Shown: positions 6,345 through 63,086 of the stretch, piece by piece | How the letters are laid out: every line of letters starts with the position of its first letter | Numbering within the stretch: position 1 is the stretch's first letter | NCBI GenBank assembly: GCA_038207395.1 | Contig: JBBQZW010000001.1 | Span: 142,862 to 206,861, forward strand | Reading direction: 5' to 3' | DNA: 64,000 nucleotides | DNA from: Minisyncoccia bacterium | GTDB lineage: Bacteria; Patescibacteriota; Minisyncoccia; Phycocordibacterales; Phycocordibacteraceae | Notes under the pieces: model-generated | What the model was told of the DNA's origin: nothing | Database searches by the model: none | Seen by the model: the letters and a program-made list of their open reading frames with translations, nothing else | Program-made: the position numbers and the translations under genes

Positions 6345-8359
<2,015 letters not shown>

Positions 8360-55821: not shown

Positions 55822-56874
55822 CTATTGTCCTCTTTCCAGAACCTCTTGCACTCGGCCTTTTAATTTCAAGGTATTTCCATGCCTCAATAAGCCCAGATAA
55901 GACTGGATTGTTTCACTCTTAACTCCATTCTCGTGTATAGATTTGAGCATGCGTTTCTTAGTCGTAGTACGCAGAGTCCTGTGGTAAGGAAAATGTACCC
56001 AACCAAGAAAATCTATTCCTGACGATACGGTCGCAATAGAAACCTTCAACGGATGGATGGTAAGTCGTAATCTCTCCATGAGGAATGCTTCAATAAGGGG
56101 AAGTTGCGTTTCAAGCGACGCTCTATCTGAAGAGAGGAGCACAAAATCGTCTGCATAGCGCATATAGTATTTAGCCCTTAACATATGCTTCGCGAAATGA
56201 TCGAACTCGTTCATATATACGTTCACGAGGAGTTGGCTCGTGAGATTCCCGAGCGGTAGTCCGACGCCCTTTCTTGTGGAAGAAAAGCTTTCGATAATTT
56301 GGGACAATAACCAACAGATATCCTCATCTGGAATATAGCTCTGAATAATCGAAGTAAGGATGCCGTGATCTATAGATGCGAAGAATTTTCGGATGTCACA
56401 TTTCAGCACCCACCCCGTCTTTGTATAGTTCTTGGAAACCTTACCAGAGAAACGATTGAATCGTTCGAGGGCTTTATGGACACCTTTATTATCTCGGCAT
56501 GAATAGGAGTCAGCGATAAACGTCCGATCGAAGAACGGATAGAGCTTCCGATACAACGCGTGATGCAGAAGTCGATCACGCACACTCGCCTTATGAATAT
56601 CGCGTGGCTTCGGATCAGATATCTTGAATGCCCAATACTCAGAGTGACGGTAGATCTTGCTAGCAAGGTCGTCTCGGAGTCTCAGAATGTTATCCATGAG
56701 ATTCTCCTCAAATTCCCGCACGTCGGTGCGACTCCGCTTCCCCGAAGCGAACTCACGCCATGCTTCGAGCAGGTTTTCTAGCGAAATGATATCGTGATAG
56801 GAACTACTTGATTGAATTTTATTAGGAACATGGAACGTACCCCCCCCCCGAGACTTTTGCCAGTTATTGAGCAT
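55822..56874 (-). CDS. Diversity-generating retroelement (DGR) reverse transcriptase.
   Basis: 350 aa. It has RT motifs including YADD (MRYADDFVLL) and the DGR-specific LPLGNLTSQLLVNVY motif, which replaces the QGxxxSP of retron and group II RTs. It lies 350 nt from a TR/VR pair with adenine-specific mismatches. Confidence 0.9.
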   Translation of the reverse strand: MLNNWQKSRGGGTFHVPNKIQSSSSYHDIISLENLLEAWREFASGKRSRTDVREFEENLMDNILRLRDDLASKIYRHSEYWAFKISDPKPRDIHKASVRDRLLHHALYRKLYPFFDRTFIADSYSCRDNKGVHKALERFNRFSGKVSKNYTKTGWVLKCDIRKFFASIDHGILTSIIQSYIPDEDICWLLSQIIESFSSTRKGVGLPLGNLTSQLLVNVYMNEFDHFAKHMLRAKYYMRYADDFVLLSSDRASLETQLPLIEAFLMERLRLTIHPLKVSIATVSSGIDFLGWVHFPYHRTLRTTTKKRMLKSIHENGVKSETIQSYLGLLRHGNTLKLKGRVQEVLERGQ

Positions 56875-57204
56875 GCTGTTTCAGTATATAAGCTCTGGTA
56901 TGAGTATCGAGACCATTTCCCAAAGAAATCTCGCTATACGCTGGGCGACCGGATAGACCTAGTTTTCATACAGCTCGTGGAATTGCTGTGGGCAGCAGGG
57001 TACCAGGCGAAAGATGAGAAGCTCCCCACCATAGCAGCCGCGATACGGAAATTAGACGGTCTTAAATTTTTGCTTCGTATTGCGTGGGAAATTCAGATTC
57101 TCGATAGCACGAAGTACGCCTCCCTGTCTGAACCTCTCTTTGAGATCGGGAAGATGCTTGGCGGTTGGCGAAAAGGCATAGAAACGAAAACTCCCACACG
57201 TTAA
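56812..57204 (+). CDS. avd: Accessory variability determinant (Avd)-like four-helix-bundle protein. It is divergent from the RT, its 5' end overlaps it, and the start is uncertain.
   Basis: It resembles the TIGR02436 four-helix-bundle / 23S rRNA IVS protein family (FPKKSRYTLGDRIDLVFIQLVELL ... LSEPLFEIGKMLGGW). It sits between the RT and the TR. Confidence 0.6.
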   Translation: MNFIRNMERTPPPRLLPVIEHAVSVYKLWYEYRDHFPKKSRYTLGDRIDLVFIQLVELLWAAGYQAKDEKLPTIAAAIRKLDGLKFLLRIAWEIQILDSTKYASLSEPLFEIGKMLGGWRKGIETKTPTR

Positions 57205-57227
57205 GTGCGGGAGAACCGTGGGAGTTT

Positions 57228-57340
57228 CGAGAGAACGCTCGATTACCGGCATTCCAGTTGTCATCGTCCAGCTTCCACGTGTTGACGTTCCACTTCCGAT
57301 CGTCGCCGTTCCAGTTGACGTTGACGACATAGCCTGCGAC
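57228..57340 (-). repeat. DGR template repeat (TR), 113 nt.
   Basis: It matches 57686-57798 at 99 of 113 positions. All 14 mismatches fall where the minus strand of this copy has A, so this copy is the adenine-bearing template. An in-frame translation reads AGYVVNVNWNGDDRKWNVNTWKLDDDNWNAGNRAFSRN, rich in AAC codons. Confidence 0.88.
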
Positions 57341-57634
57341 TCTCGTACCTAGCGCCATCTGTGCCACCATCCGTTGAGTACTCTCCGGACTGAATAGTAT
57401 TTGGGACGTCGAAGTCCTCCAGCGTTAGATACCAACTACCAAGATTTTTTATAAAATTCCGGGCGCATGCTTTCTCAAGCCGTAGCCGGAGAGATTCGAG
57501 CCCACGGAATTCCAGAGTCCCTATGCCTAAGCCAATAGCCGAGACATCACCAAGAACTCAATACCAGTATACAAAATAAAAATCCCTCGGATTTCAAAGA
57601 TACAAAGTATCAAAGAGATAAGAGAGATTTCGGT

Positions 57635-57664
57635 GGCGAGTCTGGCCGGATTGCCAGACTCGCC
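57635..57664 (-). other. GC-rich 12-bp stem hairpin 22 nt downstream of the VR (DGR target-recognition hairpin/cruciform candidate).
   Basis: GGCGAGTCTGGC-cggatt-GCCAGACTCGCC, a perfect inverted repeat. Confidence 0.65.
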
Positions 57665-57678
57665 CAAGATGTTCAGGT

Positions 57679-58209
57679 TCAGTTGCGAGAGAACGCTCGA
57701 CCACCGGCATCCCAGTTGACAACGCCCAGCTCCCACGTGTAGACGTCCCACCTCCGACCGCCGCCGTACCAGTTGACGTCGACGACATAGCCTGCGACGT
57801 AGAACAGGTTCGCATAGCCGTTGTTGAGGAGGTCGCCCGCCTCGCCATTGGGTTGCTTGCTGATCATCTGGTCGATGCGAGCGCACAGCTCGGACTCGTC
57901 GAAGATGTAGTCCTCGCCGAGGCCGGGCGTGATCTCGCGATCGTAGGCGTTTTTCGTCAGCTCGCGCGAGATGAGGGTCAACGAGTCGAGGCTTTCGACC
58001 GGCTTCGCCTTCGAGCGCACACGCGACACGAAGTCGTCGGAGACCCAGACACCCTTGCGGGTTTTGAGAGCCGACGGGTCGTAGGTCGCAATGGCGTCGA
58101 GCGAGACACTGTCGTTGATCAGCTTCAGCACAGCAGGCTTGGGAGCCTGCTGTGCTGAAGCTGATTCGGAAGCCCCGAGCGCAGAACGCTCTTGAGATGG
58201 GCTTCCCAC
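57679..58209 (-). CDS. DGR target (variable) protein with a C-terminal VR. The 5' boundary is uncertain: the GTG start has no obvious RBS and the ORF overlaps an upstream ORF.
   Basis: It is a 176-aa ORF whose last ~37 codons are the VR. The alternative-frame Arg-rich ORF 57527..58219 is rejected. Confidence 0.75.
   Translation of the reverse strand: MGSPSQERSALGASESASAQQAPKPAVLKLINDSVSLDAIATYDPSALKTRKGVWVSDDFVSRVRSKAKPVESLDSLTLISRELTKNAYDREITPGLGEDYIFDESELCARIDQMISKQPNGEAGDLLNNGYANLFYVAGYVVDVNWYGGGRRWDVYTWELGVVNWDAGGRAFSRN
57686..57798 (-). repeat. DGR variable repeat (VR), 113 nt, at the extreme C-terminus of the target gene.
   Basis: It is the variable partner of the TR. At the 14 TR-adenine positions it carries G (10 times) or T (4 times). 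It encodes ...AGYVVDVNWYGGGRRWDVYTWELGVVNWDAGGRAFSRN*. Confidence 0.88.
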
Positions 58210-58322
58210 GCCGCGCCATTTTCGCCGGTGAACCGGTTCATGACGTCGAGCGACAGGTTGACTTGGGGTTGGGACAGATTGACCGAAGCCCGCACGAGCG
58301 AGCCGAGCATGTCTTTGGACAT
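58125..58322 (-). CDS. Small ORF with a strong RBS (AAAGGAG-N7-ATG) that overlaps the 5' end of the target ORF. It may be the true N-terminus of a frameshifted target gene or a separate small gene.
   Basis: It reads MSKDMLGSLVRASVNLSQ.... An 85-nt out-of-frame overlap with the 176-aa ORF spans a 19-bp perfect palindrome. Confidence 0.35.
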   Translation of the reverse strand: MSKDMLGSLVRASVNLSQPQVNLSLDVMNRFTGENGAAWEAHLKSVLRSGLPNQLQHSRLPSLLC

Positions 58323-58547
58323 GGTCTATTCTCCTTTAGGGAGCACGCTGTACAACGAATTCGGATGGTTCCCGATTCGCCACAGCAGGAGGAGCCCTAA
58401 AATAAGGCGCTTTCTGCTGTGGCGAACTGCAACTGAATATCAAGGAACTAGTCTGTACCACTTTATCACGATATGATGATAAAGTCAAGTAGCACGCGAC
58501 TCTTTTTAGTCTACACGCGGCAATGGGGTTAGAAACTCATAAGACTG

Positions 58548-59102: not shown

Positions 59103-60386
59103 ATGAATAAACTATCTTGGACAACAATCCAAAAACGCGTAAACGATCTGATTCCCCAGGAGATCAACCCTCGCAAGATCACCGACAAACAAATGTCGGA
59201 CCTGAAGCGAAGCCTTAAGAAGTTCAATCTGGTGGAAATCCCCGCCGTGGATTATGACGGCACGATATTAGCAGGACATCAGCGTATCAAGGCTCTCCAG
59301 CTTCTTGGTCGCGGAGATGAGATGATCGACATCCGAGTACCTAATCGCAAACTAACCGAGAAAGAGTCTAAGGAATACCTGATCGGCTCCAACAAACTTG
59401 GTGGAGATTGGGACTTCGACATTCTGAAATCATTTGAACTCGATACGCTCTCGTTCGCAGGATTCGACGACCTTGAGCTTTCTAAGTTCTGGGACACTGA
59501 TAACGAAACTAAGGAGGACGCGTTCGACGTTGAGAAGGAGTTGAAGAAGATCATAGAACCGAAGACAAAGCTCGGTGACATTATTCGTCTTGGTAATCAC
59601 AAGATTCTTTGTGGCGACTCGACTGACCCGAAGAATCTTGCACGGCTTCTAGGGAGCGAACGCGCCAGCATGATCTACTCAGATCCCGTCTACAACATCT
59701 CTATCGACTACGACGGAGGCATTGGCGGTAAGAAGGATTACGGAGGAAACGTAAACGACACGCGCACCTACGAGGAATACAAGACTTTCATCAAGGAAAG
59801 CCTCGCTGCCGCGCTCGCCGTAGCAGACCCCAACACCCATATCTTCTACTACTGTGATCAGGTCTATATTGGCTTGATACAGGAAATTTACCGATCGCTC
59901 GGCATCGCTAACAAGCGGGTGTGCCTGTGGCTCAAGAACTCACAGAACCCAGTGCCGAAGGTGTACTGCAACAAGGCATATGAACCAGCCGTATACGGCA
60001 CGCGTGGAAGACCATACCTCGCGGAAGCCGTAAGCAATCTCAACGAGGTTATGAACAAGGAGTTCGGTACGGGAAACGAGCTTGTGGCGCAGGTGGACGA
60101 CTTCCTCGAGATCTGGACGGCAAAGCGACTTGCCGCGAAGGACTACAAGCACGCGACCTCAAAGCCGATCACACTCCACGAGAAAGCCATAAAGCGATGT
60201 ACCAGACCAAACGAAATCATTCTCGATAGCTTCCTGGGTTCAGGCAGTACCCTGCTTGCCGGAGAACAGCTTGGACGACGCGTGTACGGATGTGAGCTTG
60301 AGCCACGCTTCTGCGACCTAATCGCGATTAGGTTCGAGGCACTTACTGGAACCAAGCCAGTCATCGAACACCATGAAAAAGAATAA
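59103..60386 (+). CDS. ParB-like nuclease domain fused to an N6/N4 DNA methyltransferase (phage-type).
   Basis: ParB N-domain (INPRKITDKQMSDLKRSLKKFNLVEIPAV), methyltransferase motif IV SDPVY and motif I ILDSFLGSGST. Confidence 0.8.
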   Translation: MNKLSWTTIQKRVNDLIPQEINPRKITDKQMSDLKRSLKKFNLVEIPAVDYDGTILAGHQRIKALQLLGRGDEMIDIRVPNRKLTEKESKEYLIGSNKLGGDWDFDILKSFELDTLSFAGFDDLELSKFWDTDNETKEDAFDVEKELKKIIEPKTKLGDIIRLGNHKILCGDSTDPKNLARLLGSERASMIYSDPVYNISIDYDGGIGGKKDYGGNVNDTRTYEEYKTFIKESLAAALAVADPNTHIFYYCDQVYIGLIQEIYRSLGIANKRVCLWLKNSQNPVPKVYCNKAYEPAVYGTRGRPYLAEAVSNLNEVMNKEFGTGNELVAQVDDFLEIWTAKRLAAKDYKHATSKPITLHEKAIKRCTRPNEIILDSFLGSGSTLLAGEQLGRRVYGCELEPRFCDLIAIRFEALTGTKPVIEHHEKE

Positions 60387-60849
60387 ATTCCAGAAGCAGT
60401 TCTTGGACGAACTGCGGAAAGTACCGATCGTTCAAGTTGCGTGCGAGAAGACCGGCTTGTCTCGCAACAGTATCTATCGCTGGCGTAACGAAGATGCAGA
60501 GTTCCGCAAAGCTATGGAGGAAGCAATCGCCGAGGGTGAGGAACTTGTAAATGATATGAGTGAGGGTCAGCTACTCACACTTATCAAAGAGAAGAACTGG
60601 TCAGCGATTAGCTTCTGGCTTCGTAAGCGCAATCCCAAGTTCAAGGATCGCCTAGAGGTGGAAGTTGCACCTAAGCAAGAAGAACTCACGGAGGAACAGG
60701 AAGAGACTGTGCGTGAAGCTCTTCGACTTGCCTCTATGGATCCAACTATTAACCCTGTAACAGAAATCGACCATGGAACAGAACCCATTACCGACGCACC
60801 TGATGGAAACGATGCTGAAGGATCGGAAGGTCCGAACAGCGATCACTAA
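60373..60849 (+). CDS. Putative terminase small subunit (HTH).
   Basis: HTH segment ACEKTGLSRNSIYRWR and an acidic C-terminus. It is immediately upstream of and overlaps the large terminase gene. Confidence 0.5.
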   Translation: MKKNKFQKQFLDELRKVPIVQVACEKTGLSRNSIYRWRNEDAEFRKAMEEAIAEGEELVNDMSEGQLLTLIKEKNWSAISFWLRKRNPKFKDRLEVEVAPKQEELTEEQEETVREALRLASMDPTINPVTEIDHGTEPITDAPDGNDAEGSEGPNSDH

Positions 60850-62245
60850 AGAGAGCCATTGGTACTTCTTCCATTTCTACTTCGCTCACTATGTGAAGTA
60901 CCCGACCGCTCCTTTTCAAAAGGAGTTTATGGGGCTTTCAGAGCGCGAAGACGTGAAGAATCTCGTTGTGGTGGCCTTTCGCGGATCGGCGAAATCGACC
61001 ATCTTCACCATGTCCTATCCGATCTGGGCCATCCTCGGAAAGCAGCAAAAGAAATTCATTGTCATCCTGTCGCAAACACAGGCGCAAGCGAAACAGCATA
61101 TGATGAACCTTAGGCGTGAGCTTGAGGGTAATCCACTTCTCAAGAACGACCTCGGACCATTCCAAGAGGAGCGCAATGAATGGGGTGCAACTTCCCTTGT
61201 GTTCGGAAGGCATGGTGCTCGTATTACCGCCGTCTCAACGGAGCAGAGTGTTCGCGGCCTGCGTCATAATCAGCACCGGCCTGATCTCATAATAGGAGAC
61301 GACCTTGAAGATATTGCTTCCACAAAGACACGAGAGGGGCGTAATAAGACCTACGAGTGGCTAACGGGTGAAGTGATTCCTGCCGGAGACCGAAACACGC
61401 GCCTTATCGTGATCGGAAACCTTCTGCATGAGGATTCTCTCATTATGCGTCTACGCGAGGATATTGAGGGTAAAAGGATCGATGGAATGTTCAAAGCGTA
61501 TCCCCTTCTCGAAGGTCAGAAGATCTTATGGCCTGGAAAGTATCCGACAATGGAGGATATCGAGGAAGAGCAACGGAAAGCGGCAAACGATTACGCATGG
61601 CAACGCGAGTATCTTCTCAACATTGTTCCTGCGGAAGATCAGGTTATTGATCCGGCATGGATCCATTACTACGACGAGATTCCACCGCGCGTGCGGGTTT
61701 ATAGCGATGAGACTTACATGACGAATCTTGAAGTACGCATTGGTGTTGATCTGGCTATCTCGAAGCGCGATACCGCAGACTACACCGCGATGGTGCCAGC
61801 CCTCCTATACGAAAGGAAGAAGGGCTACGACATATACATTCTTCCGAAAATCATCAATAAGCGACTCTCATTCCCCGAAACTGTTGAGACGTGCAAGGTG
61901 ATAAACCAGTCGTACAAAGAGATCAAGGAATGGAACGGACCGGTGTTCGTGATTGAGGACGTAGCGTATCAAAGCGCCCTTCCCCAGCAGCTGAAGGCTG
62001 AAGGGCTCAGACAAATACACACAGTAAAACCGGGCAATGTAGATAAGCGCGCACGACTTATGCTGACCGCTAACCTTATCAAGACAGGAGTCGTAAAGTT
62101 TCCACGGCAAGGAGCCGAGCAATTAATTCAGCAGATAGTCCATTTCGGTGTTGAGAAACATGACGACCTTGCGGATGCATTCTCAGCTCTCGTCTTGGAC
62201 GCGATTGCAGAGCCTCCAAGAACCTTCCGGATCTTTATGCTCTAG
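60773..62245 (+). CDS. Phage terminase large subunit.
   Basis: Walker A AFRGSAKST, Walker B LIIGDDLED, and a C-terminal nuclease-like domain. 490 aa. Confidence 0.85.
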   Translation: MEQNPLPTHLMETMLKDRKVRTAITKESHWYFFHFYFAHYVKYPTAPFQKEFMGLSEREDVKNLVVVAFRGSAKSTIFTMSYPIWAILGKQQKKFIVILSQTQAQAKQHMMNLRRELEGNPLLKNDLGPFQEERNEWGATSLVFGRHGARITAVSTEQSVRGLRHNQHRPDLIIGDDLEDIASTKTREGRNKTYEWLTGEVIPAGDRNTRLIVIGNLLHEDSLIMRLREDIEGKRIDGMFKAYPLLEGQKILWPGKYPTMEDIEEEQRKAANDYAWQREYLLNIVPAEDQVIDPAWIHYYDEIPPRVRVYSDETYMTNLEVRIGVDLAISKRDTADYTAMVPALLYERKKGYDIYILPKIINKRLSFPETVETCKVINQSYKEIKEWNGPVFVIEDVAYQSALPQQLKAEGLRQIHTVKPGNVDKRARLMLTANLIKTGVVKFPRQGAEQLIQQIVHFGVEKHDDLADAFSALVLDAIAEPPRTFRIFML

Positions 62246-62793: not shown

Positions 62794-63086
62794 AAAAATC
62801 CCGCCACCAGGAGGACCCTTGCGGGTATCCCTACCTAAGTTTCCCTAGGTAACCGAACCAACGACCCTGATGACGGGGTTTTTACGTTGGTTTGGGTTTT
62901 CGACCATATCCTTTGAAATCAAAGGGGTTAGGCCATTTCTATTCAATTGTCCGTAATATGGTTGCCCCTACTACCTCTTCATAAGATGGCAGTCCGGTTG
63001 TTCTGCTAAGCCCTCCACGACCATGCTACGAATCACTAGTTTTGCATAGACTATGCATCATCCCCTGGTCTGGCATCAATTAATAG

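Follow-up and report, generated by a model that had tools for sequence, protein, structure and literature searches.

The window analyzed here is a stretch of 64,000 nucleotides (nt) from a Minisyncoccia bacterium (contig JBBQZW010000001.1, positions 142,862 to 206,861). At positions 55822-58434 of the window lies what is very probably a chromosomal diversity-generating retroelement (DGR) of the candidate phyla radiation (CPR) clade, with the architecture designated B3. The cassette is composed of (i) a target gene that carries a variable repeat (VR), (ii) a spacer, (iii) a template repeat (TR), (iv) an avd gene on the opposite strand, and (v) a reverse transcriptase (RT) gene. Its core features, with protein lengths in amino acids (aa), are the following.

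57681-57798, minus strand: VR, the last 38 codons of the target gene, ending ...AFSRN and the stop codon
57223-57340, minus strand: TR, rich in Asn (AAC) codons when read in the VR frame
56857-57204, plus strand: avd, likely start TTG 56857, 115 aa
55822-56874, minus strand: RT of DGR type, 350 aa (Pfam RVT_1, E = 2.4e-21)

Repeat pair, reverse transcriptase and Avd

The TR and VR, aligned at an offset of 458 nt, are identical at 103 of 118 positions, and the 15 differences are confined to one kind of template base: 15 of the 32 TR adenines differ, compared with 0 of the 86 other positions. With adenine making up 27% of positions, the chance that all 15 differences would fall on adenine is ~3e-9 by our own arithmetic. 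An initial inspection of the DNA without database searches (the sequence-only reading) had described a repeat pair of 113 nt. Realignment of this core (57228-57340 against 57686-57798) reproduced the 99 identities and 14 mismatches; the first copy has T on the plus strand, hence A on the minus strand, at all 14, and the second has plus-strand C at ten and plus-strand A at four, which are the G and T substitutions that had been reported. Five further bases, to 57223 and 57681, extend the repeat to its actual 118 nt and bring in mismatch number 15 (57227/57685), an A-to-C change that is again at a TR adenine. The adenine-only differences confirm the assignment of the first copy as template and of the second as variable repeat.

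In the core, seven of the changes fall on codon position 1 and seven on codon position 2, and all 14 are non-synonymous, turning Asn, Asp, and Lys codons into codons for Asp, Tyr, Gly, Arg, Glu, or Val. The 14 changes correspond to 13 variable residues. A codon-by-codon check thus agrees with the residue spectrum first noted for the VR and with the Asn/AAC-rich character of the TR. The 15th change, from CGA to CGC, is silent and sits at the 3′ edge of the VR, where the boundary reads CGCAAC in the VR and CGAAAC in the TR. A second VR or target was sought within the window, and none was found.

Among solved structures, the best match of the RT is chain A of 8ub7 (328 aa, labelled "Reverse transcriptase") with E = 6.5e-42 and 147 bits, compared with ~70 bits for the structures of group II intron and retron-type RTs. 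The alignment pairs LGNLTSQ of the window RT with IGSLTSQ and YADD with YMDD, bearing out the view that this is a DGR-type RT with GNLTSQ and YADD motifs. We take 8ub7 to be bRT of the Bordetella phage on the basis of its 328-aa length, its sequence, and the residue numbers I181, G182, and Q187. According to Handa et al. (bioRxiv 10.1101/2023.10.23.563531), these three bRT residues contact the template and the nucleotide. Because the window RT pairs with bRT at IGSLTSQ, GxxxSQ is the normal DGR form and no departure from it.

The top NCBIfam match of the RT is a group II intron RT/maturase model (E = 5.8e-41), which raises the alternative that the locus is not a DGR at all and consists of a retron or group II-type RT beside a duplicated gene fragment. 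No DGR RT model appears among the NCBIfam matches, a library that may simply be without one. A retron or group II profile had been named at the outset as an outcome that would refute the DGR reading, and both kinds of model stay below their family cut-offs: the group II model gives 140.8 bits where 300 would be needed, and the retron St85 model gives 52.6 bits where 235 would be needed. 8ub7 scores twice as high as the group II RTs, an Avd is present, all 15 of 15 mismatches are at adenines, the cassette with its adenine-biased repeats is conserved in ~70 loci, and an Rfam search found no intron or retron RNA. The non-DGR alternative is accordingly so improbable as to be negligible.

The avd ORF (open reading frame) on the opposite strand is at its longest 130 aa (56812-57204, plus strand), with an in-frame ATG at 56830. 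Pfam bAvd (PF22296) recognizes it at 55.8 bits, above the cut-off of 40, and the proposal that this ORF encodes Avd is thereby sustained. The NCBIfam model DivGenRetAVD aligns ORF residues 16-121 with its positions 1-104; its beginning at residue 16 points to TTG 56857 as the start, and the avd called in a closely related cassette, L086, is likewise 115 aa long. No PDB chain was matched by Avd in a sequence search.

Relatives were collected in a one-genome-per-species scan with the window RT, from which the best 80 loci were kept (RT identity 55-66%); almost all are in metagenome-assembled genomes of Patescibacteria, Parcubacteria, or Saccharibacteria. Every related locus that extends upstream of the RT has an avd homologue on the other strand, adjoining or overlapping the RT 5′ end, and this reversed-avd layout is present in ~70 related Patescibacteria loci. 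About 50 of the related loci also carry an adenine-biased repeat pair and match the window in order and spacing: VR, 300-400 nt, TR, reversed avd, and RT. The A-to-C difference at the VR boundary recurs among them: in 13 of 50 pairs, the window's included, it is the final mismatch between TR and VR and stands in a CGAAA(C/G)T context. Architecture B3, TR-(avd)-RT, accounts for 90% of CPR DGRs (Wu et al. 2018, NAR, PMC5758913), and DGR clade 2 is restricted to Patescibacteria, encoded in cells, and has targets without recognizable domains (Roux et al. 2021, PMC8144416). The layout in the window is the published B3 architecture and is already catalogued; a reversed Avd between TR and RT, which had at first been considered unusual, is common both in the literature and in the related loci.

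Elements around the repeats and at the avd/RT junction

Several further elements surround the TR, follow the VR, or lie where avd and the RT gene overlap. The six helices of the leader RNA are labelled H1 to H6 from its 5′ end.

57566-57571, minus strand: -10-like box TATACT (consensus TATAAT), with a T-rich stretch before it; conserved alignment columns
57341-57560, minus strand: leader RNA, six helices, ~220 nt, directly 5′ of the TR
57546-57537/57533-57524, minus strand: leader helix H1
57503-57500/57466-57463, minus strand: leader helix H2
57494-57485/57480-57471, minus strand: leader helix H3
57432-57421/57356-57345, minus strand: leader helix H4
57417-57414/57407-57404, minus strand: leader helix H5
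57390-57386/57373-57369, minus strand: leader helix H6
57181-57213, minus strand: 9-bp stem-loop (57213-57191) followed by TTTTCGTTTC; begins 9 nt past the TR and overlaps the avd stop codon
57635-57664: GC-rich inverted repeat, perfect over 12 bp with a 6-nt loop; begins 16 nt past the 118-nt VR, with no T-tract after it
57592-57623, minus strand: CTTNG array with 8-nt spacing, between the VR hairpin and the candidate TR promoter
56840-56849: purine repeat, G10 on the RT strand (C10 on the plus strand), in the overlapping 5′ ends of avd and RT, at RT codons 9-12

The leader is conserved among loci whose RTs are only 55-66% identical to that of the window, and among the window and the cassettes L086 and L001 it is ~95% identical, above the coding regions. 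Applied to 48 loci, RNAalifold predicts 43 pairs in six helices, 39 of them with compensatory changes. Pairing holds in 92.9% of the cells, whereas sliding the partners by 1-3 columns leaves 41-47%. The covariation score is 0.829, compared with 0.216 at most, and was reached by 0 of 500 shuffles. A covariance model of the TR-proximal domain (H4-H6) has 74 matches in 821 kb, all on the RT-sense strand. It finds 73 of 75 DGR copies and never matches twice in one, and all matches that were checked lie just 5′ of the TR; 25 of them, in 24 loci, come from outside the seed alignment. Its sole match in the window is 57341-57443 (79.7 bits). Two hairpins within the leader resemble each other in their conserved loops, which follow the pattern nGGyyAnGGyTT.

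Folded alone, the putative 388-nt TR RNA has a z of -0.9, which is not significant, and the evidence for structure therefore rests on covariation. The leader region matched no family in Rfam 15, a collection that includes the RT-associated motifs published by Weinberg et al. 2017; among these is RT-10, which the Bordetella phage has between its TR and RT.

The -10-like box upstream of the leader is, judging from its consensus match and conservation, likely the promoter of the TR RNA. On the far side of the TR, 48 of 50 loci have a hairpin with a T4 tract no more than ~30 nt from the TR end; the corresponding counts are 2 of 50 for shuffles and 9 of 50 for the regions after the VR. The stem sequences differ among loci (for example, CTCCC.../...GGGAG and CCGCG.../...CGCGG), and the window hairpin was also picked up by a terminator scan; its 9-bp inverted repeat, which the sequence-only reading had described, is confirmed at 57213-57191. 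Stems of ~9 bp just downstream of the TR, the Avd-binding stem-loop, are found in many Avd-carrying DGRs, those of the CPR included (Handa et al., bioRxiv 10.1101/2023.10.23.563531). The window hairpin may act as an intrinsic terminator in the TR sense and/or as such an Avd-binding stem-loop. If it terminates, the TR RNA need not run antisense through avd. A joint TR-RT transcript antisense to avd, as the sequence-only reading had envisaged, is probably not required in view of this terminator-like hairpin in 48 of 50 loci and of a separate candidate promoter-like site for the RT (56910-56883), directly upstream of its start.

Downstream of the VR, the 101 nt at 57600-57700, which include the GC-rich hairpin, fold at -32.6 kcal/mol (z = -3.9 relative to shuffles). 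The perfect 12-bp stem, correctly noticed from the start, is the same in L086 and L001 save for one loop base. A hairpin of -12 kcal/mol or lower within 70 nt after the VR is found in 25 of 50 loci and in 8 of 50 shuffles. Next to this hairpin, the CTTNG copies CTTTGATA, CTTTGTAT, and CTTTGAAA occupy 57615-57592. Across 50 loci, CTTNG occurs after the VR 3.7 times per 130 nt, compared with 0.66 in shuffles and 0.24 on the reverse complement; the enrichment is thus ~5.6-fold over shuffles and strand-specific, and the commonest spacing is 8 nt.

The G10 tract at the avd/RT junction is the only G or C run of at least 8 in the 64-kb window. A purine repeat occurs at the same site in ~70 related loci, either as poly-G of 7-17 or as (GA)n of 5-21 units (for example, at 2919-2930 in L086, 830-840 in L022, and 4948-4978 in L038). 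Its length differs in 4 of 5 locus pairs with near-identical flanks: G10 versus G12, G11 versus G10, G11 versus G14, and 31 versus 21 nt of GA. Most loci have an in-frame RT ATG 0-26 nt downstream of the tract. In the lineage of the window the only RT start, ATG 56874, is upstream of it, and the tract is therefore coding; the RT is in frame with G10 in the window and out of frame from the same ATG with G12 in L086 and L087. The tract may act as a phase-variation switch through slippage, as a ribosome-binding site rich in purines, as a promoter element, or in some other way. It may be a poor fit for the spacer of a sigma-70-type promoter, since the distances between those candidate -35 and -10 boxes that were judged by eye depart from the usual 16-18 nt.

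At the same junction, a run of C51 in L016 (4886-5000) and one of at least 48 C upstream of the RT in L074, truncated by the edge of that locus sequence, may be real expansions or assembly artefacts.

Target gene, palindrome and activity in the lineage

The target gene is divided over two reading frames, with a palindrome where these meet.

58125-58322, minus strand: target 5′ fragment, 65-aa ORF; strong ribosome-binding site AAAGGAG 8 nt upstream of ATG 58322
57679-58209, minus strand: target 3′ fragment, 176-aa ORF; family homology from ~58146 in this frame
58118-58165: perfect palindrome of 22 bp with a 4-nt loop (58118-58139 versus 58144-58165), within the target gene
58376-58426, minus strand: hairpin TTCGCCACAGC...GCTGTGGCGAA in the target 5′ leader, near the upstream cassette edge at ~58434

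The whole target gene amounts to ~206 aa. A search with joined reading frames returned 81 homologues of 147-253 aa, most of them 185-227 aa; none of the 81 has a Pfam domain, and the named ones are from Patescibacteria. The N-terminus of the target is nearly identical to that of homologues P0001-P0004. The homologues align from ATG 58322 in a frame that runs to ...SGLPNQLQHSRLPSLLC and then meets a stop at 58125, while the remaining family sequence, APKPAVLKLINDS..., sits in the frame of the 176-aa ORF. Alignment of the DNA with the related cassettes L086 and L088 places a net 1-nt deletion, a -1 frameshift, in the linker and exactly inside the 22-bp palindrome. The VR does end the 176-aa ORF, as had been proposed, with the last 38 codons, but that ORF is the 3′ part of a frameshifted gene and not the whole target. 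To call the DGR complete, as the sequence-only reading did, is therefore an overstatement, the target reading frame being interrupted here.

L086 and L088 have intact target genes of 215 aa and an imperfect palindrome with one arm 1 nt longer; at the L086 site, 16 of 22 positions are complementary. The arms in the window differ from those of L086 and L088 at a minimum of eight positions, and each change raises self-complementarity. From the sequences, the palindrome looks like the product of a template-switch "quasipalindrome correction" that also dropped one base, and the gene that the window DGR diversifies has most likely lost its full-length translation. Programmed -1 frameshifting was rejected as an explanation, as no X XXY YYZ slippery site lies upstream of the palindrome.

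A different account would have the element fully intact and active, the frameshift being a sequencing or assembly artefact or translation restarting at GTG 58209. It fits a VR without a stop codon, the agreement of 86 of 86 non-adenine VR positions with the TR, as expected of recent homing, and an RT and avd that are intact and in frame; perfect hairpins are also generally known to trouble sequencing and assembly. However, at least eight arm changes and the deletion, all of which raise complementarity, have the look of templated mutation and not of base-calling error, and there is neither a Shine-Dalgarno sequence before GTG 58209 nor a slippery heptamer upstream of the hairpin. A fully intact element is hence unlikely, with a minority share of the probability.

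Decay offers the opposite account, in which homing is over and the TR/VR differences are fossil. The interrupted target ORF speaks for it, as does the G tract, which eases the loss of the RT (that of L086 and L087 is out of frame from the same ATG). It is at odds with the zero non-adenine TR/VR differences over 118 nt and with an RT ORF, Avd, leader RNA, and hairpins that are all intact, with scores comparable to those of relatives (leader domain, 79.7 bits). Since these parts are intact and no non-adenine decay has set in, any inactivation would be very recent, and a relic is improbable, clearly more so than an intact element. The preferred reading remains a B3-type DGR whose target was probably frameshifted by a palindrome-perfecting mutation.

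Activity can be followed in the closest cassettes, which are L086 and L087, both from soil metagenomes, and L001. Their TRs differ from that of the window at 6-8 of 118 positions, and their VRs differ widely. The four related VRs vary at 25 of 29 shared adenine sites compared with 10 of 86 other positions (Fisher p = 2e-13); 14 of the 25 variable adenine sites show at least three different bases, and 7 of the 10 non-adenine differences mirror a substitution in the VR's own TR. VRs that track their own TR and vary at adenines imply repeated TR-to-VR copying with adenine-specific errors. This comparison of sequences shows a DGR that has been active in the lineage.

The AlphaFold2 model of the target, built from an 82-sequence alignment, has a predicted local distance difference test score (pLDDT) of 96.4 and a predicted template modelling score (pTM) of 0.90. 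Residues 50-154 are modelled as two strands, two helices, and four strands, with the VR on the last ones. This order of strands and helices fits a C-type lectin, so the C-terminal part of the target may be read, on weak evidence, as a compact and divergent C-type-lectin-like domain. A Foldseek search of the model against PDB and the viral models of BFVD returned nothing better than E ~0.4. The C-type-lectin-like reading agrees with the expectation for CPR targets (Roux et al. 2021, PMC8144416), and the non-canonical fold suggested earlier from the ...AFSRN ending finds no support in the prediction, whose order, weak as this evidence is, fits a C-type lectin.

The hairpin in the target 5′ leader is kept in L086, L001, and L088 with stem-preserving changes. 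The target has a G+C content of ~60% compared with 41-50% in RT, avd, and flanks (57680-58320 in the window, ~1400-2000 in L086, ~6000-6600 in L001), a contrast that is present in all three closely related cassettes.

In the mechanism that these elements suggest, the TR would probably be transcribed as its own non-coding RNA of ~390 nt comprising the -10 box (57571-57566), leader, TR, and 9-bp hairpin with U-tract. These elements are conserved; the promoter and terminator would be their presumed roles, and the RNA may end at the hairpin at 57213-57191 or pass it. By the established DGR mechanism, RT-Avd would bind the TR RNA and make cDNA while misincorporating opposite adenines. The cDNA would then replace the VR up to the CGCAAC/CGAAAC boundary, with the downstream GC hairpin presumably helping to mark the recipient. 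The outcome would be new residues at 14 Asn/Asp/Lys codons of a putative C-type-lectin-like binding surface.

Several observations weigh against parts of this interpretation. (i) NCBIfam DivGenRetAVD scores the 130-aa ORF at 72.7 bits, below its cut-off of 80. (ii) The promoter and terminator roles are deduced from consensus matches and conservation, and the post-TR hairpin could be solely Avd-binding, with transcription reading through. (iii) A duplex between 45 nt upstream and 75 nt downstream of the TR, the analogue of the Bordetella "cPRT Stop", did no better than shuffles in a crude RNAduplex test (mean z = 0.09; below -2 in 4 of 50 loci). (iv) The evidence of activity, drawn from related VRs, applies to the lineage and not to this genome today. 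(v) The palindrome and frameshift could be an assembly artefact, and two exact-match scans of metagenome contigs, one with the palindrome and one with its conserved arm, found no second copy.

Comparison with known systems and genomic setting

Compared with other CPR B3 DGRs and with DGR clade 2, the element shows no difference in kind. It shares (i) gene order, (ii) the reversed avd, (iii) a chromosomal location, (iv) an AAC-rich TR of ~118 nt, (v) a small target without a Pfam domain and with a C-terminal VR, and (vi) RT relatives that are 55-66% identical. Specific to the window are the frameshifted target and the very strong 12-bp GC hairpin after the VR; its G tract lies inside the RT ORF, whereas in most relatives it is upstream of the RT start.

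The element of Bordetella phage BPP-1 (mtd-avd-TR-brt) has the closest solved RT, with which the window RT shares IGxxxSQ and Y(A/M)DD motifs. Both elements possess an Avd, TR/VR differences specific to adenine, and a VR that forms the 3′ end of the target; in both, a GC-rich inverted repeat lies downstream of the VR and a stem-loop directly follows the TR. The target fold is of C-type-lectin type in BPP-1 and, on weak evidence, may be so in the window. In contrast to BPP-1, the window has its avd on the opposite strand between TR and RT, a post-TR region that is antisense avd and starts with a terminator-like hairpin, a covarying leader of ~220 nt 5′ of the TR, a chromosomal location, a target that is no phage tail fibre, and a purine repeat at the avd/RT junction. 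For BPP-1, ~20 nt on the upstream side of the TR and 140 nt on its downstream side are enough (Handa et al., bioRxiv 10.1101/2023.10.23.563531).

The junction repeat has a parallel outside DGRs in the location of its tract and in the variability of its length. Simple-sequence contingency loci include the poly-G tracts in genes of Campylobacter and Neisseria and the (TA)n repeat between the divergent hifA and hifB promoters of Haemophilus influenzae. Like these, the DGR junction has a homopolymer or dinucleotide tract at a gene 5′ end or between divergent genes, with a length that varies among near-identical loci. Unlike these, most of the DGR relatives have the tract 0-26 nt upstream of the RT ATG, so a ribosome-binding site or promoter element is possible.

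As a DGR, the locus is ordinary, CPR bacteria being already known as rich in DGRs of this layout. Its interest is as an entry point to a clade-wide leader RNA, a terminator-like hairpin that would part TR transcription from the RT, and a length-variable G/GA repeat. These three features and the CTTNG array belong to the clade and are not special to the window; no description of the four was found in the literature or Rfam, Paul et al. 2017 lying outside that coverage.

Read jointly, these properties raise the possibility, tentative and short of even odds, that CPR B3-type DGRs have a different RNA layout and an extra layer of control relative to the Bordetella phage paradigm. The template would be a self-contained RNA of ~390 nt, with a retron-like 5′ scaffold of six helices for protein binding or priming and a 3′ end formed by hairpin and U-tract. 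The hypermutable purine repeat at the junction would gate RT and/or Avd, such that hypermutation would itself be phase-variable, and the 8-nt-periodic CTTNG array might mark the target site. If confirmed, the layout would show how reversed-avd DGRs build their template RNA, given that in the Bordetella model the essential RNA is the part that follows the TR, and the repeat would suggest that cells switch targeted hypermutation on and off by slippage. The frameshifted target, for its part, would be a clean example of a palindrome-perfecting mutation inactivating a gene.

The surroundings of the cassette are those of a bacterial chromosome, with genes for GroEL, RNase J, BacA, a P-type ATPase, and MsrAB in the window. 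The ~2.6-kb cassette (55822-58434) has differing neighbours in the three closely related loci: a GST gene and prophage-like genes in the window, TrmB and HU in L086, and an ABC transporter and a histidine kinase in L001. Either the cassette moves, therefore, or its neighbourhood turns over.

Duplicated cassette parts occur in two of the other related loci. L076 (4453-8476) has two avd, two full RT, and two identical TRs that both match one VR (6544-6658), and L047 (1251-5957) has two avd copies, with a second RT that is only a short fragment (residues 26-48).

Beside the DGR of the window lies a prophage-like block (59103-62245) that encodes a ParB-like/DNA methyltransferase fusion and small and large terminase subunits; the DGR target itself showed no similarity to phage proteins. 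Just past the terminase genes, a LOOT RNA (Rfam RF03000) occupies 62813-62934 on the minus strand, with 76.5 bits against a gathering threshold of 46.4.

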